Below are positions 3,562-51,686 of a DNA stretch of 64,000 nt, piece after piece. Source of the DNA: a virus. Taxonomy: Duplodnaviria; Caudoviricetes. The stretch is taken from positions 4,927 to 68,926 of IMG/VR virus record IMGVR_UViG_3300033073_001493; one strand, 5' to 3'. Position 1 is the stretch's first letter. Each line of letters opens with the position of its first letter. The notes beneath the pieces are model-generated. The model worked only from the letters and a program-made list of their open reading frames with translations. It was not told the origin of the DNA and ran no database searches. The position numbers were made by a program, and so were the translations under genes.

Positions 3562-3638
3562 CAGCGTGCGTTCCACACAGCCCCGCTGTCCCCTGGCAAA
3601 CCAGGGGCGCGGGGCTTGGGGGCGTGAGAGGTGACGAG

Positions 3639-3851
3639 ATGAAGGCTTCTGACATCAAGGTCGGCGCAAGGCTGGTGTGGCGACGCGGCGACTGCGTGTG
3701 CGCCGTCGAAGTAGTCGAATCGAACGCAAGGGCCATCCGAGTGAGGCCGGCCGTGAGCGAAAGCGGCCTCTGTTACCACGCGGTGCCGGCTGACCTGTAC
3801 GAGACAGGCGAGGCGGCCATGCGAGACGTGTGCTGGTGGCAGTGCCCATGA
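3639..3851 (+). CDS. Small hypothetical protein
   Basis: GAGG RBS; ATGA overlap with the ASCH gene. Confidence 0.5.
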   Translation: MKASDIKVGARLVWRRGDCVCAVEVVESNARAIRVRPAVSESGLCYHAVPADLYETGEAAMRDVCWWQCP

Positions 3852-4300
3852 GGTGCATATCTCTCATACAGCCGTGGGCGTGGCTGGTGACCGCTGGCCC
3901 GAAGCGGATCGAGAACAGGGAGTGGCCGCTACCGCGCGGGCTCATCGGACAGCGGGTGCTTATCCACGCCAGCAAGACCGACCCGTTCAAGTATGGCGAT
4001 GCGGCGGACTTTGCCGAAAGCGCTGGCATCGATGTCGACATCCCGCAAGAGGCATACGAGCAGCGTGGCGGCATCGTCGGCAGCGTGCGCATCCTGGGGT
4101 CGATCCCAGCGGGCGTGAACGAGCACGTTGCCAGCGTGATCGCCGACGACGTGGCGCGTGGGCTCGACCTGCGCTGGTGGATGCGCGATCAGCACGGCTT
4201 CATCCTGGGCGACCCCAAGGTGCTGCCGTTCACACCACTTCGTGGTCAGCCCGGGTTCTTCGAGGTTGGCGCTCTCGACTTCGGCGGCATCGAGCCGTGA
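3848..4300 (+). CDS. ASCH domain protein
   Basis: N-terminal ISLIQPWAWLVTAGPKRIENREW signature; GGIVGSV; PLRGQPGFF. Confidence 0.85.
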   Translation: MRCISLIQPWAWLVTAGPKRIENREWPLPRGLIGQRVLIHASKTDPFKYGDAADFAESAGIDVDIPQEAYEQRGGIVGSVRILGSIPAGVNEHVASVIADDVARGLDLRWWMRDQHGFILGDPKVLPFTPLRGQPGFFEVGALDFGGIEP

Positions 4301-4611: not shown

Positions 4612-5529
4612 ATGGGTGAGAACAGCAACATCTCATGGTGTCACCACACGTTCAACCCGTGGATTGGCTGTGCGAAGGTCTCAGACGGCTGCAAGCATTG
4701 CTACGCCGAGGGAATGCAGCACCGCTTCGGCGGCGGGCTGTGGGGTAGCGACGCGAAGCGTAGGCTCACTGCCGACAGCACATGGCGCCAGCCTCTCTCG
4801 TGGGACCGCAAGGCCAAAGCCGCGGGCGAGCGGCACCGCGTGTTCTGCTCGTCGCTGGCCGACGTGTTCGAGGACCGTGAAGACCTCGCCGAGCCGAGGC
4901 GCAGGCTCTTCCAGCTTATCGAGCAGACGCCGCATCTCGACTGGTTGCTGCTCACGAAGCGACCTCACGACATGGCGCGCCTCGCTCGTGCGGCCGGCTG
5001 GTTCGGGGACTGGCCGAGCAACGTGTGGGCGGGCGCCACGGTCGAGCACCAGAAGGCAGCGGATGCGCGCATCCACGAGCTGCTTCGCGTGCCCGCACGC
5101 ATACACTTCCTATCCTGCGAGCCCATGCTCAGCCCGATCCGGCTCACGTACAGGCTCGGATGCCACGCGGGTAAGGACGGTGAATGCAACTGGCAGCACT
5201 GTCCGCAACTACGCGACAGCGAGCCTGCACGTAGTGGCAGGCACTGCCCGCTAGACTGGTCGTCGCAAGACGATTACGAGAGCCCGCCGCGCATCGACTG
5301 GGTCATCGTGGGTGGCGAGAGCGGGCCGAATGCGCGGCCGTTCGATTTGTTGCACGCGGGGTCGCTCGTGCGCCAGTGCAAGCTGTCCGGCGTGCCCGTG
5401 TTCTTCAAACAGCTCGGCGCCAGCCCGGTGTTTGGCGGCAAGCCGTGGCCCCTCGCACACGACAAGCGAACTGGCGCCGACACGCGCGACTGGCCCGAGT
5501 GGGCCATGGTGCAGGAGGTGCCACGATGA
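4612..5529 (+). CDS. DUF5131 (phage Gp37/Gp68-like) protein
   Basis: ISWCHHTFNPWIGCAKVSDGCKHCYAE (CxxxxxxCxxC), VFCSSLADVF, WLLLTKRP, FLSCEPML, DWVIVGGESG, VFFKQLG. Confidence 0.9.
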   Translation: MGENSNISWCHHTFNPWIGCAKVSDGCKHCYAEGMQHRFGGGLWGSDAKRRLTADSTWRQPLSWDRKAKAAGERHRVFCSSLADVFEDREDLAEPRRRLFQLIEQTPHLDWLLLTKRPHDMARLARAAGWFGDWPSNVWAGATVEHQKAADARIHELLRVPARIHFLSCEPMLSPIRLTYRLGCHAGKDGECNWQHCPQLRDSEPARSGRHCPLDWSSQDDYESPPRIDWVIVGGESGPNARPFDLLHAGSLVRQCKLSGVPVFFKQLGASPVFGGKPWPLAHDKRTGADTRDWPEWAMVQEVPR

Positions 5530-5776: not shown

Positions 5777-6859
5777 ATGACGATCCGCAAGGTGACGAGA
5801 CGGGGCAAGCCCGTGCTGGTCATTGACATCGTGTACCGGGACGCACAAGGCGCCAAGCAGCGCTACCGCCGCGACGCGCAGGTGCAGACCATGACGGCAG
5901 CGCGCGCAGAGGAGCGCCGGCTCATCGGCGACCTCGCCGCGGTGGGCAGCATCGAGCACCACAAGGCGCCTGCCCCGGCACCGGCGACCGCGCCGAGCTC
6001 GGCGCCATCGTGGCAGGCGTCGCTCGATCGCTACCTCGCGGTACGTGGCCCGACGCTCAAGCCGTCGACCCGCAGCGGCTACGAAGAGGTGTCGGCGGCC
6101 ATCCTCACCCCGCGCTGGGGCGAGCGGCCGGTCGACTCGATCGACCACGCCGAGCTGCTCGCGCTCGACGCCTCGCTCGCGTCGCGCGGCGCCTCGTCAT
6201 CGAGGCGGCGCAACGCGCAGATCGTGGCGAGGTCGGTGCTGAAGCACGCGCTGCCTCGCGAGGAGTGGCCCACGTTTCCTCCACTGCCACGGGTGGGCAG
6301 CAAGGTGGTGCGGGCACCGTCGGAGGCAGACGTTGCGCGGCTCATCGAGTTCGCGCCGCCCGCACTCACGCTGCCCATTCTGCTCGCGTACTACGCCGGC
6401 CTGCGCGCTGGTGAGGTGCGGGGGCTCAAGTGGTGCGACATCGACCTGCGCGGGCGCGAGCTGCTCGTGCGCCGAGCTGTCTGCCGTGGTGTCGAGGCGG
6501 CACCGAAGAGTGGATCTGAGCGGCGCGTGCCGCTCGCCGAGGCGCTCTTTGCGGCGCTGTCCAGCGCACGCAGGGGCTCGCCTGATTCGCTCGTCTGCCC
6601 GTCGCCGAAGAGCAAGCGGGTCGAGCGGCCGTGGAGCGAGTGCGCGCTGTCGCGAGCGACGACCAAGCTCGCTAGGCGGCTCGGCCTGCGCTTCAGCTTC
6701 CACGGCCTGCGCCACGCGTTCTGCACCGCGCTCTTTCGGCGCACGACGCCGGCCAACGTGGTGCAGGAGCTGCTCGGCCACAGCAACCTCACCGTGACCC
6801 AGCGCTACGCCCACGCCACATCGGCCGACCGGCGAGCAGCGGTGGCGCTGCTCAACTGA
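5777..6859 (+). CDS. int: Tyrosine recombinase (phage integrase)
   Basis: Catalytic set present: YAGLR (R), APKSG (K), FHGLRH (HxxR), LLGH (H), QRY (Y); AGGAG RBS. Confidence 0.95.
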   Translation: MTIRKVTRRGKPVLVIDIVYRDAQGAKQRYRRDAQVQTMTAARAEERRLIGDLAAVGSIEHHKAPAPAPATAPSSAPSWQASLDRYLAVRGPTLKPSTRSGYEEVSAAILTPRWGERPVDSIDHAELLALDASLASRGASSSRRRNAQIVARSVLKHALPREEWPTFPPLPRVGSKVVRAPSEADVARLIEFAPPALTLPILLAYYAGLRAGEVRGLKWCDIDLRGRELLVRRAVCRGVEAAPKSGSERRVPLAEALFAALSSARRGSPDSLVCPSPKSKRVERPWSECALSRATTKLARRLGLRFSFHGLRHAFCTALFRRTTPANVVQELLGHSNLTVTQRYAHATSADRRAAVALLN

Positions 6860-6871
6860 GGCAACGTGGTC

Positions 6872-7170
6872 GTGGAAACAGCGTGGAAACGCCCTTCGGC
6901 AACGTCGCCACGGTGGCAACAGCACCGTTGGCCAGACTGTGATATCGCGGCCATATTCACGCGGTATCAGCTTGGAGCCACCTTCGGGATTTGAACCCGA
7001 GACCTACGGTTTACGAAACCGCTTCGCGTCCGCAGAGCGCGCCCCCTCCGGAGCAGCGAAAACACGCTGTTTTCTCGACTTGCGAGGGCCAACGGAGGGG
7101 AGCGCTCGGCGGACACGGGAGGACACGGAACGCATGGCAACGACACCCATCGTGGTAACGGAGTGGAAAC
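6872..7170 (+). promoter_or_regulatory. Putative integrase arm-type binding sites flanking attP (RTGGNAAC)
   Basis: GTGGAAAC 6872 and 6883, GTGGCAAC 6913, ATGGCAAC 7134, GTGGTAAC 7152, GTGGAAAC 7163; GGACACGG direct repeat at 7111 and 7121. Confidence 0.65.
6973..7022 (-). other. attP: attP core equal to the 3' half of tRNA-Thr(CGT)
   Basis: Minus strand reads GCGGT-TTCGTAA-ACCGT (anticodon arm, CGT), AGGTC, TCGGG-TTCAAAT-CCCGA (T arm), AGGTGGC-T-CCA; no D arm or 5' acceptor strand upstream; about 110 bp after the int stop. Confidence 0.85.
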
Positions 7171-7201
7171 AGCGAGCTCAGCCGGTGGCCGAGGTGCACC
7201 C

Positions 7202-7570
7202 ATGAGCAGGGTCGTCACCAGCACGCCCTTCGGCGACTACGTGCGGGGTGCGAGGCAGCGCGCCGGGCTCTCGCTGCGCGAGCTGGGCAAGGCGCTCGGC
7301 GTCTCGCACGTCTACGTGAGGGAGGTCGAGTGCGGCCACCGCCCGCCGTTCGTGCGTGAGCGCTGGCCAGCCCTCATGGCGGCGCTGCCCGGCATCACCA
7401 AGTCGGGGCTGGTCTACCACCTCGCGCTGACCGAAGGCGTCACGCTGAGCTTGGCCGACGCGTCGCCTGCGTACCGAGAACTGGCAATCGCGCTCGCCGA
7501 CCCCAGGGCCCGGGAGATTCGAGACGACGATGCGCTCGCCATCCTGAACGTGCTGAGGGGGCGCCAGTGA
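7202..7570 (+). CDS. XRE-family HTH regulator
   Basis: FGDYVRGARQRAGLSLRELGKALGVSHVYVREVECGHRPP. Confidence 0.85.
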   Translation: MSRVVTSTPFGDYVRGARQRAGLSLRELGKALGVSHVYVREVECGHRPPFVRERWPALMAALPGITKSGLVYHLALTEGVTLSLADASPAYRELAIALADPRAREIRDDDALAILNVLRGRQ

Positions 7571-8011: not shown

Positions 8012-9490
8012 ATGACCCAAGCCGCTGCCACACGAGCGTGTGAGCAGTGCGGGCAGTCGTTTCCCTACGAAGGGACGACGCGCCGCTACTGCTCGGAGAG
8101 ATGCCGCTACCGGCACAAGGACCAAGCGCTGCGCTCCAACCCCGAGCGCCACGCGCGGCAGGCCGCGCAGCAGGCCGCGTGGATGGCGGCCAACGTCGAC
8201 TGGCGCAATGCCCGCAGGCGAGAGCGCACGCTGGCGAGGCGGCTCGACGTGCCCGCGACCGAGTGCCTGCACTGCGCCGCCGCGATGCCCGCGCGCAAGC
8301 TCCGGGTCTACTGCTCCGACGACTGCGTGATGGCCGCATGGCGCAAGGCCAAGGCGGCCGAGACGGAGCCTCGCCCCACGCCTGCCCCACGTCGCCGCAT
8401 CGTGACCGTGGCGGGCGAGCGAGAGGCCACCAGCGAGGCGAGCGAGCAGCCTGCCCGGTCGCCCTACGAACTGCCCGCGCCAGACCTTGGCCGCCACGTT
8501 CCCGGCGTCGTGTGCGAGCTGCTGCTGAGCGGCGTGCCCGGCATCGTCGAGCACCGCCACGCGAGGCTGCTGCACGGGCTGCTCTCCCACGCCATCGGCC
8601 GAGACCACGACGCCATGCGGCCGGCCTTCGCGCTCGTGCCCTACGCGCACTGCCGCTCCCAGTGGGCCGTGTGGTGCGCGAGCCACGACGATGCGAGGCG
8701 CCTGCACACGAGCCCCCACGCAGGCACGCTCTTCGGCCGCGACGTGCGCGTGTCGCTCGGCCTGCCCCACCGCGTCCACCTGCCTCGCTACCAGCCCGGC
8801 CGCTACACGGTGCGCATCGACACGGTGACGCTCGTGCACGTCCGCAGCAACGGCACGCACACGCACACGGTCAAGACGGCGCCGACGGCCGAGAGCCTCG
8901 CGAACACGCTGACGACGACGCTCGCCCGCTTTCGCCTGGGGCTCGAGGTCGCGCCGGCCGACCTTGGCCTTGCGCTGCTCTCGCACGAGACGATGCCCGA
9001 CCGGCTGCACACCGGCAGCGAGTCGCACTGGCGCAACGTCGACGACGGCGCTGCGGTGCCCGGCCTGCTCTCGGGATGGGTCGGCACCGTCGTGGTCGAG
9101 GTGAGCGCCGTCGGTCGCACGCTGCTCGAGTGTGCGCGCTGGATGGGGCTCGGTGGCCGCGTGTCGCTGGGGCTAGGCCGCATCGCCGTGCGCGACGTGA
9201 CCGACAGCGCCGAGCGCTCGCGCGCCGTGGGCAGGTTCTTCGTCACGCCGCACGCCGTCGAGCGCTACCGCGAGCGCATCGAGCCCGTGGCCTACGACGT
9301 GGCACTCGGCCGCCTCATTCGCGCATCGGCCGACGCCCGCCTCGCCAAGCGCTACCCCGACGGGCAAGCGCTCTACCGCACGGGCAAGCCAGACCGCCTC
9401 GCCTTCGTCGTCGCGCCGTGTGCCGAGCCCGGCGAGCGCTCTCACGCCATCGTCACGGTTCTCGGCCCGCCAGCAAGGAGCGCAACATGA
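8012..9490 (+). CDS. cas6: Multidomain protein: two CxxC...CSxxC Zn fingers, Cas6-like RAMP domain, C-terminal putative RelE/DUF4258-like domain
   Basis: CEQCG...YCSERC and CLHCA...YCSDDC; central region with RLLHGLL, GWVGTVVVEV and G-rich loop WMGLGGRVSLGLGRI (GhGx5GhG, Cas6 hallmark); C-terminal VTPHAVERYRERI...IVTVL; heads the csf operon. Confidence 0.75.
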   Translation: MTQAAATRACEQCGQSFPYEGTTRRYCSERCRYRHKDQALRSNPERHARQAAQQAAWMAANVDWRNARRRERTLARRLDVPATECLHCAAAMPARKLRVYCSDDCVMAAWRKAKAAETEPRPTPAPRRRIVTVAGEREATSEASEQPARSPYELPAPDLGRHVPGVVCELLLSGVPGIVEHRHARLLHGLLSHAIGRDHDAMRPAFALVPYAHCRSQWAVWCASHDDARRLHTSPHAGTLFGRDVRVSLGLPHRVHLPRYQPGRYTVRIDTVTLVHVRSNGTHTHTVKTAPTAESLANTLTTTLARFRLGLEVAPADLGLALLSHETMPDRLHTGSESHWRNVDDGAAVPGLLSGWVGTVVVEVSAVGRTLLECARWMGLGGRVSLGLGRIAVRDVTDSAERSRAVGRFFVTPHAVERYRERIEPVAYDVALGRLIRASADARLAKRYPDGQALYRTGKPDRLAFVVAPCAEPGERSHAIVTVLGPPARSAT

Positions 9491-10020
9491 ACACCATCGA
9501 CACCCTTCGCTCTTTCGGCGCCTGTGACGATGCACTCGAATGGGCCGAAGATCGACCCGAACAGTCGCCAAACGGGCTTTGGCTAGAGTGCCATCGAGCC
9601 GATTGGCTGCTTTGGTACATGGGCAAACTCGCCGCGCGCGACGGCCACGGCTCCAAAGTTCACCGCCGCGCGGTTTTGATCGCTTGCCTGTGTGCCCGCA
9701 TCGCATCCATCCACTGGCGCGATCCATCGTGCGAGCGTGCCGTGTCGTTGGCTGAGCGGTGGGCTTGGGGCGACAGATCGGTCACGTGCGGGGAATTGCA
9801 CGCCGCCGCTGCTGCCGTTGAATACGCCAACGCTGCCCACTCCGCCGCCGCCTCCGCCGCCGCCACCGCCGGAGACGCCGCCGCTGCTGCCGTTGAATAC
9901 GCCAACGCCGCCTACTCCGCCGCCGCAGACTGCTCTTCCAGAAACGCCGCCGCCCGAGAGGCGCGCCTCGCCTCTCTCGCCGACTTGATCCGTGCTGCCA
10001 TCCCCGAGGTGCCGCTGTGA
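9487..10020 (+). CDS. Ala-rich repeat hypothetical protein between cas6 and csf1
   Basis: AAGGAG RBS, ATGA and GTGA overlaps on both sides; duplicated AAAAAVEYANAA unit. Confidence 0.75.
   Translation: MNTIDTLRSFGACDDALEWAEDRPEQSPNGLWLECHRADWLLWYMGKLAARDGHGSKVHRRAVLIACLCARIASIHWRDPSCERAVSLAERWAWGDRSVTCGELHAAAAAVEYANAAHSAAASAAATAGDAAAAAVEYANAAYSAAADCSSRNAAAREARLASLADLIRAAIPEVPL
9800..9908 (+). repeat. Two perfect 34-nt direct repeats, period 75 nt, inside a CDS
   Basis: ACGCCGCCGCTGCTGCCGTTGAATACGCCAACGC at 9800-9833 and 9875-9908. Confidence 0.9.
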
Positions 10021-11159
10021 TCGCCCCGCCGCCGTCACCGTCGCGGGCCTACTGGCTCGTGTGCGGCTCACCGCACGTCGAGCTCGAGACCGACGCGCCC
10101 GAGGGCGCACGCTGCGCCATCTGCGCCGACGAACTGCGAGGCCGAGGCGTGCCGCTCGCCAGGTCGCCCGTGTCGTTCTGCAACCAGACCAACACGCGCA
10201 TCCCCGCGTCGCCATGGCTCTGCGTGCCGTGCCTGTTCGCAACGCGCTGGATTGCCCCGCCAGGACGTAGCGGCAAAGCCGACGGCGACGATGGCGGGCG
10301 TGGCCCGAACCCCGCCATGTACGGCCACCGCTGGGAACAGCTCGCCGATGGCACTGTGCGCTACGGCAACCACTCGAAGGGCGACAAGGCCGAGCTTCGC
10401 GCGTGGCTTCGCGCGCCGAAGGCTGGCTGGTGGTGGTGCACCATTGCCGACAGCGGCAAGAAGCACACGATCCCCTGGGCGCCCATCAACCACGGCTCGT
10501 CAGCGCAGGCCGCCGTGCTGTTCGACGAGGTGATGATCACCGTCGGCGACCACGCGATGGTCGACGACATCTCGGCGCTGCTCACCAGCGGCGCCACCAA
10601 GGCCAGCGTCGAGTCGGGCCGCTACACCACGGGCGAATACGAGCGATGCGCCCAACACATTGCAGCGTTTGAAAACAGGTGGGGAGCGCAGCGCGGCGGT
10701 GGCTGGTTCGGCCTCGCGGTGTGGCTCGCCCAGCGAGACGAGGCCGCCGTCGCCGCGAGGCTCGACGAGGAGCGCGCGGCCAAGGCCGCCAAGAAGCAAG
10801 CCGAGAGGGAGCGGGCCAAAGCAGACAAGCCCGCCAAGACGAAGACCACGAAGGCCCCACGGGCCGCAAGGAGCAAGAGCGATGATCGACGAGAAGCAGA
10901 AAGAGACGCTGCGGACGCTGACGGTGGAGCTGATGCTCGACCTGCGCAGCCAGTACCTGCGCACGCCGGGGTGCAACGCGCTGACGCACTGGGAGCAGCT
11001 CACGACGAGGATGCGAGCGTGCGCCCGCATGTCGGAGAGCGTCGACGAGTGGGCGACGATGATGCTGCGCCGCCTTCAGATACCGGCGCCCAGCAAGTAC
11101 AGCTCGGACTCTTTGCTGACGCTGAGCCACGCGGTGCGCGAGCTCGGCGCCGCAAGTGA
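10017..11159 (+). CDS. csf1: Type IV Csf1 (Cas8-like large subunit) with basic C-terminal extension
   Basis: N-terminal CAIC...CVPC Zn site; WWWCTIADSGKKHTIPWAPIN matches the Csf1 SxKKH(L/T)xxxxPVN-type motif; upstream of cas11-csf2-csf3. Confidence 0.8.
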   Translation: MIAPPPSPSRAYWLVCGSPHVELETDAPEGARCAICADELRGRGVPLARSPVSFCNQTNTRIPASPWLCVPCLFATRWIAPPGRSGKADGDDGGRGPNPAMYGHRWEQLADGTVRYGNHSKGDKAELRAWLRAPKAGWWWCTIADSGKKHTIPWAPINHGSSAQAAVLFDEVMITVGDHAMVDDISALLTSGATKASVESGRYTTGEYERCAQHIAAFENRWGAQRGGGWFGLAVWLAQRDEAAVAARLDEERAAKAAKKQAERERAKADKPAKTKTTKAPRAARSKSDDRREAERDAADADGGADARPAQPVPAHAGVQRADALGAAHDEDASVRPHVGERRRVGDDDAAPPSDTGAQQVQLGLFADAEPRGARARRRK

Positions 11160-11280
11160 CTGGCTCGAGCTGATCGAGCGCGAGCACGCGCTCCTCATCG
11201 CCATCGCCCGCAAGACCTCCGAAGAGCGCCGCGACCAGCGCGCGTCGGCCGACGAGACCCTGACCCCACAAGAGGTGTGA
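10882..11280 (+). CDS. cas11: Cas11-like small alpha-helical subunit (type IV-B)
   Basis: AAGGAG RBS at 10868; 132 aa, predicted helical (HWEQLTTRMRACARMSESVDEWATMMLRRL); position between csf1 and csf2 as in IV-B loci. Confidence 0.7.
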   Translation: MIDEKQKETLRTLTVELMLDLRSQYLRTPGCNALTHWEQLTTRMRACARMSESVDEWATMMLRRLQIPAPSKYSSDSLLTLSHAVRELGAASDWLELIEREHALLIAIARKTSEERRDQRASADETLTPQEV

Positions 11281-11283
11281 GCC

Positions 11284-12303
11284 ATGTACGAACAGATCCG
11301 CTACGAGTTCATCATCGAGGCGCAAGAGCCCATCGCCCACCACAGCGAGAGCGACGGCAACCAGGCCGTCGCCTTTCGCAAGAAGGTCGTGGGCCCCGAC
11401 GGTGTGGTGCGCCAGGTGCCCATCGTCACCGCCGACACGATCCGCCACGGGCTGCGCGAGGCAGGCACGTTCGCCTACCTCGATGCGGCCGGCCTGCTCG
11501 ACCAGGCGGCGCTCACCGAGTCGGCGCTGCGTCTGTTGTTCAACGGCGGTATGATCACCGGCAAGGGCGGTGACTCGGGCTCGGTCTCGCTCGACGCATA
11601 CCGCGAGCTGGTCGAGCTGATCCCCCACGTCGGCCTGCTCGGCGGCTGCGCCCGCAACCGCTCGATACCCGGCAAGGTGCAGGTGAGCGACGCGCTGCTC
11701 ATCTGCGAAGAGACGCGCCACCGTCTCCAGCCGTGGCAGCGTGACCTGCTGGGCAAGAGGCAGCTCAACTCGCACCGCAGCTACGTCGAGAACGAGCAGC
11801 GTGTGCGCATGGATGTGATGCTCGACCCATCGAAGCGGCGCCTGCTCACGGCAGGCGATCAGGTGCGCGCCACCGGCAAGCTCGCCGCGAGCGAGCGCGC
11901 CAGCGAGACGGGCGACGCCATCGAGAAGGCCGAGGCAAAGAGCAGCATGATGCCCCGCTCGTTCGAGCGCATCGCGCAGGGCTCGCTGTTCATGCTGTCG
12001 ATCGACGCGGTGGTGCAGACGCCGCTCGAGCGAGACGCGCTCGACCTGATGGTCACGGCGTTCGTGACCCGTGGCCGCGTGGGCGGAAAGAAGGGCACGG
12101 GCCACGGCAAGATCGGCGTCTTCGGCGTGGCGCAGGCAGACGGCACGACCGAGTGGGCGGCGCAGATCGTGCCGCTGCTCTCGCCCTCGGAGCACGCGAC
12201 CTCGATCCAGCTCGGCGACCGCGCGTGCGGGCAGATGATGCGAGCCCACGTCGCCAGCAACAAGGATCGCATCAAGACGCTGCTCGACAGGATCGACGCC
12301 TGA
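11284..12303 (+). CDS. csf2: Type IV Csf2 (Cas7-family backbone RAMP)
   Basis: EAQEPIAHH, VPIVTADTIRHGLRE, LLFNGG, LIPHVGLLGGC...IPGKVQVSD, G-rich loop VGGKKGTGHGKI. Confidence 0.9.
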   Translation: MYEQIRYEFIIEAQEPIAHHSESDGNQAVAFRKKVVGPDGVVRQVPIVTADTIRHGLREAGTFAYLDAAGLLDQAALTESALRLLFNGGMITGKGGDSGSVSLDAYRELVELIPHVGLLGGCARNRSIPGKVQVSDALLICEETRHRLQPWQRDLLGKRQLNSHRSYVENEQRVRMDVMLDPSKRRLLTAGDQVRATGKLAASERASETGDAIEKAEAKSSMMPRSFERIAQGSLFMLSIDAVVQTPLERDALDLMVTAFVTRGRVGGKKGTGHGKIGVFGVAQADGTTEWAAQIVPLLSPSEHATSIQLGDRACGQMMRAHVASNKDRIKTLLDRIDA

Positions 12304-13061
12304 TGGCCTCGCGTCGCAAGGGCCCGCAGGCAGCCCCGGCGCAGCACGCCGATGAGCAGCCGGCAGCGCTCCAGACAGCGCCGCCCGCGTGCATGATGGC
12401 GCCCGTGGGCGAGCCTGCGCGCTGTCCCGAGCCGCTGCACGTCGTCGCCCACATTCGCGACAGCATCGTCACGGCGCCCATGCTCGACGCGCTGCTCGCC
12501 TACCACACAGCGCAGCGTGCGGGGCTGCCCATGTGGGCGCGGCCCGACGAGCAGCCGCGTGTCGAGATCCCCATCGCCAGATCGCCATGCGGCAGGTTCC
12601 ACCTTGCCTCTCGGCCGCAGTTCGCGGTGCAGGAGAGCGAGCAGCGGTTCAAGTCGCGGCGCCCCATCGTCGAGCCTGCGCAGCTACTCGCAGGCCCGAG
12701 CGTGCGGCGGCTCGACATCCAGACAGGCGCCAACAAGGGCTTTCGCATCCCGTACAGCACGCACCTCGTCGCGGGCGGCGTCGTGCACTGGTGGTGCATG
12801 GGCGACCGTGACCGCATCGCCGAGATGCTGCGCGGCTGCCTGCACCTCGGCAACAACCGCCGCGTCGGCCACGGCTGGGTCGAGCGCTGGGACGTGCAGC
12901 AAGCCGAGCCCTGGCCAGGCTTCCCGGTCGTGCAAGACGGCCGCCCCCTGCGCGCGCTGCCGCTCGACTGGCCAGGCGTGACCGCTGGCGGCGTTGGCAT
13001 GTCGGCGCTCACCTATCCGTACTGGGCCCCCGAACGAAAGCAGCCGTGCCGTGTGCCGTGA
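12303..13061 (+). CDS. csf3: Type IV Csf3 (Cas5-family RAMP)
   Basis: MLDALLAY, IPIA, WWCMGDRDRIAEML..CLHLGNNRRVGHGWVERWDV (G-rich loop), RALP, YPYW C-terminus. Confidence 0.85.
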   Translation: MASRRKGPQAAPAQHADEQPAALQTAPPACMMAPVGEPARCPEPLHVVAHIRDSIVTAPMLDALLAYHTAQRAGLPMWARPDEQPRVEIPIARSPCGRFHLASRPQFAVQESEQRFKSRRPIVEPAQLLAGPSVRRLDIQTGANKGFRIPYSTHLVAGGVVHWWCMGDRDRIAEMLRGCLHLGNNRRVGHGWVERWDVQQAEPWPGFPVVQDGRPLRALPLDWPGVTAGGVGMSALTYPYWAPERKQPCRVP

Positions 13062-13647
13062 GCATGGCGCGGTGCTCATTGGTCCCCACCGGCTGCTATG
13101 CAGCGACGTGACCACGGGCGCGGTGGGGCGCCTCATGGGCGACGAACTCGCCGATGTCGTCTACAGCGACCCGCCGTGGGGGCCCGGCCTCCTGCGCTGG
13201 TTCTACACGCACGCCAAGATCGACTGCCAGGCGACGTGGGGCTCGTTCCTGGCCGCGTTCTGCGCCGCCGTGGCGACCCACAGAAAGCCCGCCGCGCCCG
13301 TGTTCGTGGAGATGGGGCACGCGTGGACCGACGATCTTGCCGCAGCCATGCTGGCCGTTGGCATCGCCGAGTCGGCGCGGTGGCGCGTCTCCTATGGTTC
13401 GCCCAAGCGCGAATCGGTGCTCTGGTACAGCGGCGCGCCGTTGGCGGGAGACCCGACAGGGCTGCATGGGCGAGCGGTCCCAACATGGGCCCTGTCACGC
13501 GTCGTGCAGGCTGGCGCCGTGGTGCTCGACCCATGCTGCGGAAAGGGCACCACGGCGGCTGTCACGAAGAGGCTCGGCGGCGTGTTTCGCGGCGCCGAGC
13601 TCAATCCCAAGAGGCTTGCCACCACACAGGATGTTCTGAACAGATGA
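13051..13647 (+). CDS. Short beta-class amino (N4-C/N6-A) DNA methyltransferase-like protein
   Basis: Catalytic motif IV YSDPPW N-terminal; SAM-binding VVLDPCCGKGTT...GAELNP C-terminal; about 198 aa; GTG start inferred. Confidence 0.8.
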   Translation: MCREHGAVLIGPHRLLCSDVTTGAVGRLMGDELADVVYSDPPWGPGLLRWFYTHAKIDCQATWGSFLAAFCAAVATHRKPAAPVFVEMGHAWTDDLAAAMLAVGIAESARWRVSYGSPKRESVLWYSGAPLAGDPTGLHGRAVPTWALSRVVQAGAVVLDPCCGKGTTAAVTKRLGGVFRGAELNPKRLATTQDVLNR

Positions 13648-14732
13648 CCGTCATATCCGCCAGCATCATGCATGCGCCATGGGCAACGGCTCGCAAGGCG
13701 CATGTTGCCGCCGCGCTCGATGCGCTCAGGGACGGCGACGACGTTGTGAGCAACTCCGTCGTTGTCGAAGACGCCGAGCGCAGCGGCGTGTGGCCATGCG
13801 GCAAGCGCGCCATACAGGCAGCGCTGTCGCACCAAGACGCGACCCACATACTCGTGCTGCAAGACGACCTGCTGTTCTGCCGGTCGTTCGCCAAGGCGCT
13901 ACGTCTCGTGGTCGACGCCAAACCGGCTCACGTCATCTCGCTCTTCAGCATGAGCCGCGGCGTCGTTCTCGAAGCCAAGACGCGCGGCTCATCGTGGGCG
14001 TGGGGGCCCGATGCCGCCTACGGACAAGCCATTGTGATGCCCGTCGAGATGGCCGCCGACTTCCTGCGCTGGGAGCCAGGCAACATCAGGGACGACTTCC
14101 CCTCCTACGACAACCGCATCGCGACCTATGCGCGCGCGACCGGGCAGGGTGTGTGGGTGCCATGCCCCAACCTCGTCGACCACGCCATGCCCGCTGACTC
14201 GCTGCTCGGCTACAGCAACCGCGTGCGCGTCGCGCGGTGGTTTCTCGGCGACATGGACCCGTCGCTCATCGACTGGCGCGCAGGCGCAGACGACCCGGTG
14301 CGGTGCAGCGGCACCGTGGACTATGGGCGATCGATGGTCGACGCCGGCAAGCTCTCTGGCGTGCCCTGCGCACCAAGGCCGACAGACCCCCTCGCTGCCA
14401 TGATCGCAGAGGCAAGGCGCGACCCGCACCTACGCCGGTGCATCAAGCCTGGCCAGCGTCACGAGCCGCTGCTCTTGCGCGGGCGCATCGTGGGGTTCGT
14501 CACGCCACACGAGCAACGTGAGGGCTGGCGCGCGGGCCCCATCTACGTCACGCCGTCGGCACGCAAGCAAGGCGTCATGCGTGCGTTCTACGAAGCGCAT
14601 CGCGACAGGACATGGCTTGCGGCCATCAAGTCTGACAACGAGGCCAGCGAGGTCGCTCACGAGCGGTGCGGATTCGCGCGGCTGCGAAGGTGCAAGCTCG
14701 GATGGATCTGGCGCAGGGGGTCAACACGATGA
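13644..14732 (+). CDS. GT-A glycosyltransferase-like domain fused to a C-terminal GNAT acetyltransferase
   Basis: HILVLQDDL (DxD-like), YGQAIVMP, YDNRI, VPCPNLVDH; C-terminal GPIYVTPSARKQGVMRAF...DNEASEVAHERCGF fits GNAT motifs A/B. Confidence 0.7.
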   Translation: MTVISASIMHAPWATARKAHVAAALDALRDGDDVVSNSVVVEDAERSGVWPCGKRAIQAALSHQDATHILVLQDDLLFCRSFAKALRLVVDAKPAHVISLFSMSRGVVLEAKTRGSSWAWGPDAAYGQAIVMPVEMAADFLRWEPGNIRDDFPSYDNRIATYARATGQGVWVPCPNLVDHAMPADSLLGYSNRVRVARWFLGDMDPSLIDWRAGADDPVRCSGTVDYGRSMVDAGKLSGVPCAPRPTDPLAAMIAEARRDPHLRRCIKPGQRHEPLLLRGRIVGFVTPHEQREGWRAGPIYVTPSARKQGVMRAFYEAHRDRTWLAAIKSDNEASEVAHERCGFARLRRCKLGWIWRRGSTR

Positions 14733-15562
14733 GCGACGAGCAGCAGAAGGAGCCCATCCTCTCGGCCGACGACTGTGAGGCGTGGGCCTACTGGCGAATG
14801 GTCGCGCTGGTGCATGCCGACACCAAGGCGTTCGCGCGCAAGGTGAAGAGCGCCAAGGACGTGGCGGCGCGCTGGCTAGATGGCTGCAAGCGACCTGCCG
14901 TGTCGTGGTCTGCGGGCAAGGACAGCACATGCATGACGCACCTCATCTGCTGCGAGATGGGGGCACGAGGCATCGTGACGGCGCTGTCGGAGAAGGACGA
15001 CCTCGACTACCCCGGAGAGGAGCAGTACGTGCGCGAGACGGCGGACGCGTGGGGCCTTCGGCTCGAGCTGGTGCGTCCCGAGCAGTCACCGTGGGGATGG
15101 CTCGTCGAGCACCGCCGCGAGCTCGGCGCTGGCAGCGAGATGCACGCGCGCTCGGCAGGGCTCAGCAAGGCGTGCTTCTACGGCGTGATGGAGCAGGCAG
15201 ACCGCGCCTTCGATGGCGTGGCGCTCGGTCTTCGCAGCGAGGAGTCGGGCATCAGGCGCCGGGTGCGCGAGATGCGAGGGCGCTGCTTTCGCCTCGCCTC
15301 CGGGCAGCTACGATGCCTGCCCGTGGCCGACTGGTCGGGGCTCGACGTGTTCGCCTATGCGCACAGCCGCAACATCGAGCTGTTGCCTGTCTACCGCTGC
15401 ATGGCGCTGATGCACGCGCGCGAGCCGTGGCTCATTCGCAAGAGCTGGTGGCTGCCAGGTAGCCACGCCGCGCAGGGCGGCGTCGTGTGGCTGAGGCGCT
15501 ACTACCCGAGCCTCTACGACAAGATGTGCGCGCTCTTCGGCGACACCTGGCAGTACACATGA
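14729..15562 (+). CDS. cysH: CysH/PAPS-reductase-like PP-loop protein (type IV-B signature gene)
   Basis: VSWSAGKDST PP-loop, LGLRSEESGIR, LPVADWSGLDVFAY....LLPVY. Confidence 0.9.
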   Translation: MSDEQQKEPILSADDCEAWAYWRMVALVHADTKAFARKVKSAKDVAARWLDGCKRPAVSWSAGKDSTCMTHLICCEMGARGIVTALSEKDDLDYPGEEQYVRETADAWGLRLELVRPEQSPWGWLVEHRRELGAGSEMHARSAGLSKACFYGVMEQADRAFDGVALGLRSEESGIRRRVREMRGRCFRLASGQLRCLPVADWSGLDVFAYAHSRNIELLPVYRCMALMHAREPWLIRKSWWLPGSHAAQGGVVWLRRYYPSLYDKMCALFGDTWQYT

Positions 15563-16395
15563 GCCGCCACGCCCTGCTCGTCACTGGCAGCCGGTCGCTC
15601 GCGGAAAGTGAAGCGGCGCGCGCGTGGGCGACCGAGCAACTGCGCGGTGTGGTGGGCTCGCTGCCCGATGGCACCGTCGTGCTCACGGGCGGCGCTGACG
15701 GGCCCGATGCGTGGGCGACGTGGATGGCAGAGCAGCGCGGCCTCGCGTGGGTCGAGTGGCACGCCGACGGCTCGCGCTGCTCGAGCCTCGGTGGCCCGTC
15801 ATCGTGGCTGCCACCGCCGCCGCGCGGCGTGGGCACGCCTGTCGTGTGGACGGCACGCGTCGGCTACCGAGGCAGCGACGGGCTCGACGTGACACGCAAG
15901 AGCGCTAGCGCCGACGGCCTGCCATTCGCCCCGTCGTGGGCCATCCTCTCGCCCGAGCTCGACGCCCGTCGCCGTGGCGAGGACGCTGCGGCGCGCTGGC
16001 CTGCCTACGTCGCAGCCTACGAGCACGAGATGCGTGAGAGCGAGCGGCGCGACCCAGGCGCGTGGCAACGGCTGCTCGGTCGCGAGAGCGTGACGCTGCT
16101 CTGCTACTGCACCGACCCGGCGCACTGCCACCGGTCGGTGCTCGCTCGGATGATCGGCGCGCGCGGCGCCCGCGTCTGTGGCGAGCGCCCGTCGCCGCTC
16201 GCGCGCAACGCAGCCATGGTAGACGCCCTCGTGGCGAAGCGCGCGGCAGGCTGGCACGTTGCAGCGCTCGCCCTCGTGGACCGTCGCTCTCGCACGCAGG
16301 GAGCCATGCACACGGTCGGGCTGCTGCGCCAAGCCGGCATCGAGGTCGACGTGCGCGAACGGGGCGAGCTTGGGCAGGTCAGAGCGAGACGCTGA
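15559..16395 (+). CDS. SLOG (YpsA-like) protein with an internal DUF488-like domain
   Basis: LLVTGSRS, VLTGGADGPDAWA and later PLARNAAMV...SRTQGAMHT (SLOG) bracket FAPSW...YVAAYEHEM...VTLLCYC...CHRSVLA (DUF488-like). Confidence 0.7.
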   Translation: MSRHALLVTGSRSLAESEAARAWATEQLRGVVGSLPDGTVVLTGGADGPDAWATWMAEQRGLAWVEWHADGSRCSSLGGPSSWLPPPPRGVGTPVVWTARVGYRGSDGLDVTRKSASADGLPFAPSWAILSPELDARRRGEDAAARWPAYVAAYEHEMRESERRDPGAWQRLLGRESVTLLCYCTDPAHCHRSVLARMIGARGARVCGERPSPLARNAAMVDALVAKRAAGWHVAALALVDRRSRTQGAMHTVGLLRQAGIEVDVRERGELGQVRARR

Positions 16396-16458
16396 GCCAG
16401 TCGAGCGAGATCGTGTCGCCTGCACGCAACTGGCGCCGCTGGTGGCCGATAGGAGGGC

Positions 16459-24946: not shown

Positions 24947-25300
24947 TCACGACGAGCTGCCGGAATGACAGGTGATGAGCGGCTGCCACTCCCATGGGCT
25001 GCGCCATGGCGTCGGAGAGATCCGCGACGGGTAGATGGTCGGGTGGATGGGCTGCTGCGGAACGAACTCCCAGGGATCTTGCAGCGGCTGCTGCGGAAGG
25101 CGCTGGGCAATCTCTCGCACTTCGCGCTTGAGCCTCTCGGCGGCCGACTCTTGCTGCGGCTCTGCCTTGCCGAGCCACGCCTCGATGCGCGCCCGCTGCT
25201 CACCCGACAGGCCGCCCACGATGGCGTCGCGCTCGCGCTCTAGCTGCCGGCGCTTCTCCTCGATGACTTCCAACTTGGCGATGATCTCGCTGTCTTTCAT
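24947..25300 (-). CDS. Hypothetical coiled-coil protein
   Basis: ATGA overlap; N-terminal coiled coil. Confidence 0.55.
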   Translation of the reverse strand: MKDSEIIAKLEVIEEKRRQLERERDAIVGGLSGEQRARIEAWLGKAEPQQESAAERLKREVREIAQRLPQQPLQDPWEFVPQQPIHPTIYPSRISPTPWRSPWEWQPLITCHSGSSS

Positions 25301-38995: not shown

Positions 38996-39316
38996 TCACA
39001 CGAGGTCGAGCGGACAGGGCGGGAGCTTGGGGAATGGGATGCTCGGCAATGGGATGTCGAGCGAGAGGGACGGCAGGCCCGGTATCGGGATGCTGGGGAG
39101 CTTTGCGCCGGGCAGGTCGGGCAGCTTCGGCAGCGGGATGCTGGGCAGCGGCAGGTCGAGCGTGAGCGACGGGATGCCGGGCAGCGGTATCGACGGCAGC
39201 TTGACGCCGGGCAGGTCGGGCAGCTTGGGGATGGGCAGCGACGGCAGCGGCAGGTCGATCGACAGCGAGGGCAACCCCGGCAGCGGGATGCTGGGGAGCT
39301 TGCAGCGCGAGGCCAC
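38996..39316 (-). CDS. Pro/Leu-rich protein of three 33-aa repeats, candidate spike tip
   Basis: KLPSIPLPGLPSLSIDLPLPSLPIPKLPDLPGV-type unit x3, one Cys near each end; directly after the spike gene. Confidence 0.7.
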   Translation of the reverse strand: MASRCKLPSIPLPGLPSLSIDLPLPSLPIPKLPDLPGVKLPSIPLPGIPSLTLDLPLPSIPLPKLPDLPGAKLPSIPIPGLPSLSLDIPLPSIPFPKLPPCPLDLV

Positions 39317-39322
39317 GGCGAC

Positions 39323-51132: not shown

Positions 51133-51215
51133 GGCTGGTCCCCTGTGAGCAGAAGCTAAGGAAGGGTGTTCGGCGTCGCCGCGGCCATTGCTGACAGCGG
51201 CGACGCGAGGCGTTG

Positions 51216-51617
51216 TCAGATGAGCACCGGCACGAGGTCGCCGTCGGTGGCCGACGAGACGAGGAAGCGGCCGATCACGGTGCGCCCGTCTGGCGTCGCG
51301 CCGGTGTCGGTCACCTTGCCGGTGGTGGCGACGGCGACGGCGAGCTTGCCGCGGGTGACGGTGCCGTTGCCGATCATGGGCACCACGGCGTGGCCGAGCA
51401 GACGCACCTTGCAGCGCTTGGTGGCGCCAGCGTCGCCCGAAACGATGTTTTCCATCGCGACGGCGAAGGCGAGGTTCACGTCGGCGGTGCCGGTGATGGT
51501 GTCGTCGTCGGCGCCGAAGCAGACGAGCTGCCCCTTGGTGATGGCGACCGACGAGGTGGTGGCGAAGTCGGCGTAAAGGCCGTTGCCGGACTCGGTGTAG
51601 TTGGGAAGGAAGGCCAT
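51216..51617 (-). CDS. Capsid cement/decoration protein (DUF2190-like)
   Basis: AITKGQLV, GNGTVTRG..AV..TGKV, VIGRFL..SATDGDLVPVL. Confidence 0.7.
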   Translation of the reverse strand: MAFLPNYTESGNGLYADFATTSSVAITKGQLVCFGADDDTITGTADVNLAFAVAMENIVSGDAGATKRCKVRLLGHAVVPMIGNGTVTRGKLAVAVATTGKVTDTGATPDGRTVIGRFLVSSATDGDLVPVLI

Positions 51618-51686
51618 GTGCGAAGGCTCCGGTAAGCGAAGGAAGTGGGGAGGCCGCCGCCATTGCTGACAGCGGCCAAGCGTGGG

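Follow-up and report, generated by a model that had tools for sequence, protein, structure and literature searches.

A diverged, phage-borne type IV-B-like operon whose Csf1 protein ends in a predicted sliding-clamp-binding motif

A csf1, cas11, csf2 and csf3 set and the gene for a CysH-like enzyme form one translationally coupled operon beside an integrase gene in a viral record of 68.9 kb. By sequence comparison, this core reads as a diverged type IV-B set, and its Csf1 protein extends, out of frame with cas11, into a tail with a putative binding motif for the beta sliding clamp. The best explanation of the whole, to which we give a probability of about 0.55, is that of a phage-borne, derived IV-B module, i.e., a clamp-tethered ribonucleoprotein (RNP) that would deliver a modification.

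Results

Organization of the operon

The window analyzed here, 64,000 nucleotides in length, is part of a linear IMG/VR contig of 68,926 bp. CheckV estimates its completeness at 79%; that is, 21% of the genome is absent, so that the absence of an array or a helicase cannot be absolute. All coordinates are in window numbering, on the + strand. A tyrosine integrase gene (5777..6859; PF00589, E 9.2e-27, 94.3 bits) indicates that the phage is temperate and integrating, as the initial annotation had stated, and a gene for an XRE-type HTH regulator (7163..7570; PF13560 HTH_31, E 6.4e-9) lies directly 5′ of the operon. A short distance downstream of the integrase gene, the GC3 frame plot and a reading of the junctions delimit ten co-oriented, tightly coupled genes (8012-16395). 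ATGA junctions join g1 to g2, the methyltransferase gene to the GT-GNAT gene, the latter to cysH, and cysH to g10; the g2/csf1 junction is GTGA, the csf2/csf3 junction is TGATG, and cas11 and csf2 are separated by 3 nt.

The core subunits are of IV-B type

The earlier reading of this region as a type IV-B-like effector operon is borne out by profile matches of Csf2, Csf3, Csf1 and CysH, and by synteny. Csf2, the Cas7 backbone subunit (11284-12303; 339 aa), matches TIGR03115 (E 4.7e-10), and the best PDB match of its family profile is the IV-B Csf2 of 7JHY (E 2.7e-16), followed by IV-C Cas7c (E 2.2e-12) and IV-A Csf2 (E 0.031). Csf3, or Cas5 (12303-13061; 252 aa), matches TIGR03116 (E 1.1e-10), and PF27782 Csf3 is assigned to its homologs in related loci. 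Csf1 matches TIGR03114 with E 0.013, and its N-terminal Zn-finger domain aligns with canonical IV-B Csf1 (hhalign 94.9%, E 4.2e-8). Bit scores for the Csf proteins, at 39-41, are far under the NCBIfam curated cut-offs of 130-140. Cas11 matches the Cas11 of 7JHY weakly (E 0.15); it is kept in all loci of the clade alignment, and csf1-cas11-csf2-csf3 synteny is seen in every related locus. That the four Csf proteins constitute a IV-B-type RNP is, in our view, very probable.

The operon, put forward earlier as a candidate for an undescribed system, is no one-off: it is a member of a large clade on phage contigs that is for the most part unannotated, with >700 Csf2 homologs, 35 IMG/VR loci and 10 MAG loci. 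Our comparison set consists of 34 distinct loci.

Csf1 has an out-of-frame tail with a clamp motif

The initial annotation placed csf1 (10017-11159; 380 aa) and cas11 (10882-11280; 132 aa) end to end; instead, the csf1 frame continues for 278 nt inside cas11, in a different frame, and stays open to 11159. The ATG of cas11 and its own AAGGAG Shine-Dalgarno sequence both lie within csf1, and its frame is +1 relative to csf1; GC3 tracks the csf1 frame up to ~10860 and amounts to 0.92-0.95 in the cas11 frame from 10920 onward. Csf1 consists of a Zn-finger large-subunit core (~aa 1-250), a K/R/A/E-rich linker and a C-terminal tail, which is basic, linker-like and of low complexity, with QLGLF near its end. 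This motif (aa 362-366; codons at 11100..11114) equals the published beta sliding-clamp binding consensus QL[SD]LF/QLxLF, usually found in C-terminal tails (PMC11139829), and is thus a predicted clamp-binding motif. We regard the out-of-frame tail with this motif as the most informative feature of the operon.

The csf1 frame extends 224-368 nt beyond the cas11 start in 29 of the 34 distinct loci, in a constant relative frame, and the overlap is also present in loci with 56-60% GC. A synonymous-shuffle test of the overlap gives P<0.5 in 29/34 loci, with a Fisher's combined P of 4e-4 if the loci are taken as independent. The strict motif Q[LIM]x[LIM][FL] occurs 0-23 aa before the Csf1 stop in 17 loci, looser forms occur in 12, and the other 5 lack the motif. 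In the second Leu codon of the motif the third base is free (CTC, CTA, CTG) while the Cas11 residue changes (S, Y, C), which indicates that selection works on the csf1 frame.

Docking of DnaN from a related phage (L001) with aa 341-380 of the window's Csf1 scored 0.77 in 3/3 runs, against 0.01 for the best of three controls; because clamp-peptide complexes have already been solved, this pass may reflect memorized structures, and it speaks for likeness rather than binding. The mark of 0.77 is met by 58/80 solved complexes and by 2/110 mismatched pairs. The runs share at least 80% of contacts, with a partner pLDDT of 51. Csf1 residues 359-366 contact DnaN residues 173-178, 241-246, 319, 343-345 and 360-366, which, by E. 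coli DnaN numbering, we take to be the canonical peptide cleft. In several related phages, a phage-encoded DnaN lies no more than 10 kb from the locus. Taken together, these data lead us to consider it likely that the Csf1 tail is a functional clamp tether.

A tail of this kind might also act as a clamp poison or replication hijacker, filling the clamp cleft so that replication and repair in the host stall or clamps are directed to phage DNA, with the RNP as a multivalent scaffold only. A consensus-strength motif on a long flexible tail is what such an agent would carry, the docking contrast (0.77 against 0.01, possibly from memorized structures) is in line with it, and clamp-using phage proteins are known, e.g., MuC of phage Mu (bioRxiv 10.1101/2025.01.04.631326). 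However, one short peptide would suffice for this purpose, which leaves a conserved five-to-seven-gene RNP and its enzyme partner unexplained, and poisoning would be costly in a temperate phage whose operon stands beside an integrase and an XRE regulator. We therefore consider this reading improbable.

A Cas6 domain fused to a RelE/colicin-D-like fold

In the protein encoded by g1 (8012-9490), a Zn-ribbon Cas6 and a small RelE/colicin-D-fold protein are fused. The translated N-terminal region (8012..8389) contains an Arg-rich stretch together with two zinc-ribbon-like motifs of the form CxxC...C...C; an N-terminal Zn-ribbon is common to most aligned Cas6 homologs of the clade. The middle domain (8390..9220), a RAMP, is predicted to have a real Cas6 fold, in agreement with the Cas6-like processor proposed earlier: in the AF2 model (pLDDT 85.6, pTM 0.84) its top Foldseek matches in the PDB are Cas6 only (E 1.4e-9, TM 0.55-0.62), and the type IV Cas6 6njy is among its matches. 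Two histidines, located in helix 1 or close to it, are invariant, and the C-terminal loop GLGGR...GLGR is G-rich; the match to Pfam CRISPR_Cas6 (E 1.2e-3) is under the cut-off, and identity to solved Cas6 proteins is 8-19%. The C-terminal 88 aa (9224..9487) are modeled as a RelE/colicin-D/BrnT-fold (BECR) domain (AF2 pLDDT 86), with Foldseek matches to RelE/HigB/BrnT at E 0.05-0.3 and VIA-align Z of 5-8 to colicin D tRNase, ParE, BrnT, RelE and Cami1; no sequence match was found in Pfam or the PDB. The alignment reveals conserved His, Arg and Tyr residues in this domain, which has a gene of its own in 11 other loci. The Zn-ribbon Cas6 is found in 19/34 loci, and in 12/34 the small RelE/colicin-D-fold protein replaces it.

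Cas6 in IV-B is not without precedent: it is a rare exception with 12 recorded instances (Pinilla-Redondo et al. 2020, PMC7038947), from which the present Cas6 differs by its Zn-ribbons and RelE-like domain. A virus-borne IV-B system is known from Fuxivirus (PMC10848311), with a mini-array that the present record lacks. All of these have a IV-B core plus cysH in a viral or prophage setting, with an occasional Cas6.

With a Cas6 on a phage, the Csf complex might be a counter-defense sponge that traps and inactivates host crRNAs or other guides, shielding the phage from CRISPR- or Argonaute-type immunity. For IV-B this idea has a long history (PMC8175902, PMC7038947), and it is consistent with the heterogeneous RNA that the JS623 complex is reported to bind (PMC7937560). 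However, Pinilla-Redondo et al. called an anti-CRISPR of such complexity unlikely (PMC7038947), the Cas6 is distant from any host-type Cas6, and the hypothesis accounts neither for the methyltransferase nor for the conserved clamp motif or the partner enzyme (CysH or radical SAM); we hold out little expectation for it.

Arrays and helicases

The earlier finding of no array and no DinG holds over the 68,926-bp, 79%-complete record: it contains no repeat-spacer array, solitary repeat or Rfam CRISPR-DR, zero matches to Rfam families, no Cas1 and no DinG-type DEAD_2 domain. Nor was a conserved hairpin or solitary repeat found as a candidate RNA component. Two relatives do have CRISPR arrays 4-9 kb from their csf genes (L024, 6 hairpin repeats; L009, 14 repeats), and thus the clade may still depend on guides in the usual way. 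In some relatives a helicase adjoins csf1 (SNF2 in L033 and L040, DinG-like in L046).

These arrays and helicases speak for ordinary crRNA-guided inter-element interference, in which the Csf complex would silence or block a competing phage or plasmid, as in IV-A. The Cas6/BECR RNase would then process the transcript of an array in the missing 21% or in the host chromosome, and the clamp tail would merely aid access to replicating targets; the confirmed Cas6 fold, which implies an RNA substrate, and the incomplete record also count in its favor. However, no array lies within 10 kb of any of the 19 loci with Cas6, both array-bearing relatives lack Cas6, array, repeat, Cas1 and DinG-type helicase are missing from the record, and a near-constant enzyme partner (cysH or radical SAM) is left unexplained. 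The operon resembles IV-A (Csf1-Csf2-Csf3-Csf5/Cas6 with DinG and array) in its Cas6-family nuclease, type IV Cas7/Cas5 backbone, mobile element and lack of an effector nuclease, but it has Cas11, lacks DinG and array, and its Csf2 is far closer to IV-B. We judge ordinary interference to be rather unlikely.

Enzyme genes

The methyltransferase, GT-GNAT and PP-loop CysH assignments are supported. The first (13051..13647) is a small beta-class N6/N4 DNA methyltransferase-like protein of ~190 aa, in whose sequence motif IV (DPPW) precedes motif I; it scores 25.3 bits against PF01555 (E 1.7e-5; cut-off 26.7). Small methyltransferases recur at this position in related loci, including a homolog with 49% identity (L048) and a distant one (L001). 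The GT-GNAT protein (13644..14732) joins a GT-A-like domain (~aa 1-235) to a GNAT-like acetyltransferase domain. The former belongs to a ~230-aa phage family in the ESM Atlas (structural TM 0.8-0.9) with a weak GT25 link, and it has no counterpart in any other distinct locus; the latter matches three GNAT Pfam families, all under cut-off (E 1e-3 to 1e-2), and has homologs in L019, L027 and L048. The CysH-like PP-loop protein (14729..15562) matches PF01507 over the cut-off (E 8.3e-11, 42.6 bits), with the PP-loop motif SAGKDST and no ECGLH-type C-terminal cysteine motif in its sequence. Its gene is present in 21/34 distinct loci, and a radical SAM enzyme takes its place in L009 and L049. A thymidylate-synthase-like gene that could supply a hypermodification precursor was looked for and not found. 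Neighbors of related loci include replication and modification genes (e.g., SSB, PD-(D/E)xK, helicases, ParB-MTase), a signal that may partly reflect position rather than function, because such genes are common in these regions of phage genomes. That the RNP delivers a modifying activity is a tentative proposal whose odds we put below even.

Two genes are probably separate cargo

The second gene (g2, 9487..10020), annotated initially as an Ala-repeat gene, encodes an Imm5-like phage protein: its ESM Atlas neighbors carry PF21805 Imm5_like (structural TM 0.62-0.78), and the Ala-rich repeat is internal (a 52-nt direct repeat at 9800 and 9875). No related locus has a homolog, and one DNA-run contig connects 9480 to 10018 without g2. 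The last gene (g10, 15559..16395) combines SLOG (YpsA-like) with DUF488 (rhodanese-phosphatase superfamily), matching PF22751 DUF488-N3a (E 8.7e-15, 55.5 bits) and YAcAr (E 0.06); in phages this architecture is predicted to process ADP-ribose derivatives (PMC9503650). It is likewise absent from every related locus, and metagenome contigs join across the site of g10. Both therefore look like separate phage cargo, the Imm5-like protein probably unrelated and the SLOG-DUF488 protein probably anti-defense cargo. Thus, the ten genes are co-oriented and coupled, as described initially, but they are not a single system: Cas6, the small methyltransferase, GNAT and cysH recur among relatives, whereas the Imm5-like gene, SLOG-DUF488 and the GT half are unique here.

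Discussion

The IV-B system of Mycobacterium sp. JS623 plasmid pMYCSM02 (Csf RNP, PDB 7JHY; PMC7937560) has the same four effector genes in identical order, a PAPS-reductase-family (cysH-like) partner, and no array, adaptation genes or helicase, as does the phage within its 79%-complete record, where the profile search for adaptation genes covered Cas1. Its Csf2 is the best PDB match, and the Zn-finger of Csf1 is homologous. The present operon differs in residing on a phage, in adding Cas6 and the BECR-fold domain, and in a co-oriented cysH preceded by the methyltransferase and GT-GNAT genes. Neither JS623 nor any of 120 canonical Csf1 proteins of mycobacteria has the csf1/cas11 overlap, the linker or the clamp motif, and full-text literature searches found no mention of the motif or the overlap in IV-B.

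Tn7 TnsE is a clamp-targeted mobile-element protein, and the idea of a mobile element that locates replicating DNA via the processivity clamp would be common to both. Clamp-binding-motif tails are also carried by Pol II and Pol IV (PMC11139829). Csf1 resembles these proteins in that its flexible C-terminal tail bears a QLxLF-type motif; it differs in that the motif lies on a CRISPR large subunit, in an overlapping frame, and that binding is predicted.

In the mechanism that we favor, Csf1, Cas11, Csf2 and Csf3 would assemble as a Cas7-filament RNP on an RNA that the Cas6/BECR nuclease may excise, either from CRISPR transcripts of the host or from a transcript of non-CRISPR origin. Through its tail, Csf1 would tether this RNP to beta sliding clamps loaded on DNA, whether at replication forks or on newly replicated DNA, and since single-stranded DNA is exposed at such sites, we propose that a helicase would be unnecessary. 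The RNP would carry the CysH-like adenylating enzyme to DNA, or to RNA on DNA, marking instead of cutting; in the present phage, the complex would also take along the GT-GNAT protein and the small methyltransferase, which is TRD-less. Its role might be to shield the phage's own DNA or to hinder a competitor. As independent cargo, the Imm5-like and SLOG-DUF488 genes would stand outside this mechanism. The suggestion of the initial annotation, an RNP for nucleic acid modification or for the capture of host crRNAs, is still an inference. For type IV-B, the clamp-motif tail of Csf1 offers a testable clue to its role.

Genomic setting and relatives of the operon

The source record, of which the window covers bases 4927-68926, is a single linear IMG/VR virus contig of 68,926 bp, with ~69% G+C and a CheckV completeness of 79%. 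A GC3 frame plot, together with a reading of each gene junction, resolves window positions 8012-16395 into ten co-oriented, translationally coupled genes, so that the gene list and coupling pattern of the initial annotation proved correct. A tyrosine integrase gene (5777-6859; PF00589, E 9e-27) lies directly upstream of the operon, with the gene for an XRE-type regulator (7163-7570) between them. Upstream of the integrase are an ASCH-domain gene (3830-4300) and a DUF5131 gene (4612-5529; phage Gp37/Gp68 family, E 8e-68), and from ~27 to 58 kb the minus strand is filled by tail and head genes. Near-identical sequence was found in the runs of seven studies, comprising wastewater, freshwater, river and estuary metagenomes. 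Among these runs are three metatranscriptome runs of a single study; their sequences that contain the operon are contigs and cannot show transcription. Megablast found no match to the operon among 50,697 phage records.

The window operon is not isolated but belongs to a clade. More than 700 homologues of Csf2, nearly all unnamed, occur in metagenome protein sets, and related loci were found both in IMG/VR (35, using an alignment query, after a single-protein scan had returned none) and in MAGs (10, placed in ten different lineages). When the window proteins were compared with these loci using tblastn, the core recurred: csf1-cas11-csf2-csf3 is present wherever the contig reaches, and cysH is present in most. 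On plasmids, the only tblastn match to Csf2 was that of Mycobacterium sp. JS623, with 30% identity across 42% of the query sequence. Some relatives carry additional genes next to the core. In the three loci closest to the window operon (L001-L003), cas11 and csf2 are separated by an inserted HNH_3 endonuclease gene (L001:9463-9990), which may encode a homing endonuclease or an additional effector. In three loci without Cas6, the gene directly upstream of csf1 encodes a SNF2-family helicase (L033:6979-8694 and L040:6713-8878) or a DinG-like Helicase_C_2 protein (L046:6906-8654).

A diverged type IV-B effector set

The candidates for csf1, csf2 and csf3 named in the initial annotation all match type IV profiles, each of them distantly. 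The match of csf2 to TIGR03115 has an E-value of 4.7e-10 (39.2 bits, where the curated cut-off is 130), that of csf3 to TIGR03116 an E-value of 1.1e-10 (41.5 bits, against 140), and that of csf1 to TIGR03114 is weak (E 0.013). Because all three fall far under the NCBIfam curated cut-offs, we regard them as distant relatives. csf3 adjoins csf2, and its homologues in related loci are annotated as Csf3 (PF27782). A profile built from 22 Csf2 homologues matched, among PDB entries, the IV-B Csf2 of 7JHY (the JS623 complex) with E 2.7e-16, the IV-C Cas7 with E 2.2e-12 and the IV-A Csf2 with E 0.031. Likewise, the profile of the clade Csf1 core aligned with that of canonical mycobacterial IV-B Csf1 (hhalign 94.9%, E 4.2e-8) over 70 N-terminal columns, i.e., the Zn-finger domain, with the C-terminal half left unaligned. 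The putative cas11 gene agrees with a small-subunit gene in its size (132 aa) and in its place between csf1 and csf2, and it is conserved in all loci; its match to the Cas11 of 7JHY is weak (E 0.15).

The cysH-like gene, found in 21 of 34 distinct loci, matches PF01507 above the cut-off (42.6 bits). Its translation contains the PP-loop SAGKDST and, by inspection, has no C-terminal redox cysteine motif of the ECGLH type found in PAPS reductase (CysH). In this it agrees with CasCysH, which has been described as lacking the ECGLH-type motif (PMC8175902). The window thus shares with subtype IV-B the proteins Csf2 and Csf3, a Csf1 large subunit with a Zn finger and a cysH-like neighbor, and, like IV-B, it has no array, Cas1 or helicase that we could find. 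It differs from canonical IV-B in possessing a Cas6-fold domain, and because of that domain we class it as a variant rather than a canonical member. We conclude that the effector genes of the operon are a diverged form of the IV-B set, accompanied by a Cas6 fold fused to a probable RelE fold and by a CysH-like enzyme.

The C-terminal tail of Csf1 is encoded within cas11

From ~10860 onward GC3 no longer follows the csf1 frame, yet this frame is free of stops until 11159, well inside cas11; the latter begins at 10882, where it has an AAGGAG and an ATG of its own. The same arrangement recurs in 29 of 34 distinct loci, in which csf1 extends 224-368 nt into cas11, with cas11 invariably in the +1 frame relative to csf1, including in loci of 56-60% G+C. 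When cas11 codons were shuffled synonymously, the probability that the other frame would stay open as far was below 0.5 in 29 of the 34 loci, with a Fisher's combined P of 4e-4 for loci that are not fully independent.

Read in the csf1 frame, the tail consists of a linker rich in K, R, A and E, followed by QLGLF, QLSLF, QLDLF, QLALF or QLTLF, 0-23 residues from the csf1 stop. In the window the motif is QLGLF, at Csf1 residues 362-366, preceded by such a linker. Among the 34 loci, 17 have the motif in strict form, 12 in a looser form and five have none. QL[SD]LF/QLxLF is the consensus for binding to the bacterial sliding clamp, and is usually located in C-terminal tails (PMC11139829). Translated in the Cas11 frame, the bases of the motif encode a Ser-rich stretch that is variable. 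The second Leu codon varies among CTC, CTA and CTG, shifting the Cas11 residue between S, Y and C; as these synonymous changes alter Cas11, they imply that the constraint is on the csf1 frame. From these comparisons we conclude that the Csf1 tail is conserved and dual-coded, and that it carries a consensus, putative clamp-binding motif.

We considered whether the overlap might instead reflect a programmed frameshift that fuses Csf1 to Cas11. This is less likely, since the zero frame of csf1 is open and conserved up to the motif, and it is also disfavored by the Shine-Dalgarno sequence and ATG that cas11 has of its own. Canonical IV-B Csf1 lacks the tail. The csf1 and cas11 genes of JS623, unlike those in the window, do not overlap, and the tail is present neither in JS623 nor in 120 mycobacterial homologues. 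A clamp motif in canonical IV-B was therefore rejected (0 of 120 mycobacterial Csf1 with a tail; a few end in DDQSLL, and were not counted). A full-text search of the literature found no link between Csf1, or type IV systems, and the clamp. At related loci, public gene calls omit either csf1 or cas11; the tail may have gone unreported because gene callers omit one of two overlapping genes.

Docking in silico of the Csf1 tail to the sliding clamp

We modeled the complex of Csf1 residues 341-380 from the window with the DnaN (four-row alignment) that L001, the closest related phage, encodes. Each of the three docking runs scored 0.77, and the best of three controls 0.01; of 80 solved complexes, 58 reach the mark applied to this score, as do two of 110 mismatched pairs. 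At least 80% of contacts agreed between runs, and the pLDDT of the partner was 51. In the models, Csf1 residues 359-366 contact DnaN residues 173-178, 241-246, 319, 343-345 and 360-366, which by E. coli DnaN numbering would be the canonical cleft. Because clamp-peptide complexes have already been solved, the docking pass may reflect these look-alikes. The result is one of likeness rather than of binding, and the predicted binding to the clamp is supported in silico. Several related phages encode a DnaN of their own within 10 kb of the csf genes; none is encoded in the source record. A rival explanation of the operon is that it acts as a clamp poison.

The first gene combines a Cas6 fold with a RelE-like domain

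The product of the first gene, g1, has three parts, namely an N-terminal Zn-ribbon region, a Cas6-fold middle and an 88-residue C-terminal part. For the middle part (8390-9220), an AF2 model based on a 15-sequence alignment has a pLDDT of 85.6, and the top Foldseek matches to this model are Cas6 proteins only, type IV Cas6 included (best E 1.4e-9). The sequence profile reaches E 0.09 at best against the PDB, so that the identity is settled by the fold. The middle part has the two ferredoxin/RRM-like halves and the C-terminal G-rich loop that characterize Cas6 endoribonucleases. In the alignment of Cas6 homologues, this loop, GLGGRxxxGxGR, is invariant, the Zn-ribbon region is common to most members, and two invariant His residues in or near helix 1 are candidate catalytic residues.

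In eleven other loci, the counterpart of the C-terminal 88 residues (9224-9487, plus strand) is a gene by itself, located between csf3 and cysH. This domain has no match among Pfam and PDB sequences. Its model (pLDDT 86) resembles RelE, HigB, BrnT, ParE, the colicin D tRNase and Cami1 (Foldseek E 0.05-0.3; VIA-align Z 5-8), nearly all matches being in the BECR superfamily (RelE/ParE/colicin D/BrnT fold), and its alignment has conserved H, R and Y residues. Cas6 is present in 19 of 34 distinct loci and the small RelE-fold protein in 12; at the same threshold, only the window has both, and there they are fused. This either-or pattern suggests two alternative RNA-processing modules, with the RelE-fold protein as a second, previously unrecognized one.

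Arrays, repeats and hairpins

No CRISPR array was found in the 68,926-bp record by TRF, by a repeat search or by two k-mer screens, and neither Cas1 nor a DEAD_2 helicase is encoded there. The view that no array or DinG accompanies the operon therefore stands for the whole record, which is 79% complete. In the 64-kb window, no Rfam family reached its gathering threshold. Two relatives do have arrays: six 37-nt hairpin repeats at L024:14587-14999, 3.6 kb downstream of csf2, and fourteen 36-nt repeats at L009:1411-2400, ~7.6 kb upstream. No copy of either repeat occurs in any other locus or in the window genome. In each of these two loci the small RelE-fold gene is present and Cas6 is absent, which hints that the RelE-fold protein could process crRNA; no array lies within 10 kb of a Cas6-bearing locus. 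Rival readings of the operon as a whole are ordinary guide-dependent interference, in which the array is simply unseen, and a guide-RNA sponge.

Other repeats were assessed individually. A 52-nt repeat at 9800 and 9875 was rejected as a mini-array, as its period is 75 with ~20 nt between copies, and it lies in frame inside the Imm5-like ORF, which is found in no other locus. Intergenic hairpins with the outer stem AGCCCCG...CGGGGCT occur at window positions 3579, 17045, 17901, 21926 and 60214, and at genome position 3181; three of them are followed by a TGGGGGCGT-like sequence and a new gene. We found no link between these hairpins and Cas6, and thus no evidence that they are its substrates. 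Elsewhere, two hairpin-forming 36-nt copies of the form GTCGCCGC...GCGGCGAC (51175-51210 and 51650-51685) flank a minus-strand gene of the structural module (51216-51617). Three tandem 99-nt units, 69-75% alike, at 39021-39317 nearly fill a minus-strand tail-region gene of 106 aa, and a 25-nt direct repeat (25044-25068 and 25080-25104, 36 nt apart) is operator- or iteron-like.

Enzymes encoded with the effector set

The methyltransferase gene encodes ~190 aa resembling beta-class N6/N4 DNA methyltransferases, with the motif IV sequence SDPPW followed by the motif I sequence LDPCCGKGTT. Its match to PF01555, at 25.3 bits, is under the cut-off of 26.7, and no target-recognition domain is evident in the ~190 aa. 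Of the genes that accompany the core, the small methyltransferase and the GNAT recur in related loci: the former in L019, L021, L027, L028 and L048, with a distant homologue at the equivalent position in L001-L003, and the latter in three loci. By tblastn, none of the related loci has the Imm5-like gene, the gene for the SLOG-DUF488 protein or the GT-like half of g8 (the GT-GNAT gene). The Imm5-like assignment of g2 derives from ESM Atlas neighbors; for the GT-like half of g8, the match is to a phage family linked weakly to GT25. The SLOG-DUF488 product matches PF22751 above the cut-off (55.5 bits) and YAcAr with E 0.06; fusions of DUF488 to a YpsA-like SLOG domain have been described from phages, where they are predicted to process derivatives of ADP-ribose (PMC9503650). 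Contigs from a wastewater DNA run join position 9480 to 10018, and 15569 or 15616 to 16422 or 16563, so that exactly the Imm5-like and SLOG-DUF488 genes are missing from them, a hint only, with flanks of 30-58 nt. Strain variants without one or the other gene seem to exist.

In two relatives, the position of cysH after csf3 is taken by a radical SAM enzyme (PF19864 and PF04055; L009:12316-13791 and L049:11652-13073). This swap and the repeated occurrence of the small methyltransferase suggest that the output is modification rather than cutting. A pathway of hmU/hmC hypermodification is unsupported, as no thymidylate-synthase homologue was found in the window phage.

Possible function and implications

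The Csf ribonucleoprotein may be tethered, through the Csf1 tail, to clamps loaded on DNA. Tethered in this way, it would bring a swappable modifying enzyme, i.e., the CysH-like protein, a radical SAM enzyme, the small methyltransferase or the GNAT, to replicating DNA or to RNA on it. In the fullest version of this reading, to which we assign a probability of only about one in eight, the operon would encode an RNA-guided writer of nucleic-acid modifications that is coupled to the replisome: the clamp-riding complex would scan single-stranded lagging-strand or nascent DNA with RNA cut by the Cas6/BECR protein, and pairing would allow the CysH-like adenylating enzyme, the methyltransferase without a target-recognition domain and GT-GNAT to mark the target chemically. 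If true, this RNA-guided writer would be the first CRISPR-derived system to mark its target rather than to cut or silence it.

The 2025 update of the CRISPR-Cas classification gives no function for subtype IV-B (PMC12669027), which is among the last subtypes without a known one. A conserved peptide on the large subunit that is predicted, from its motif and from docking, to bind the clamp would place the complex at replicating DNA, and would reduce the question of function to a few inexpensive tests.
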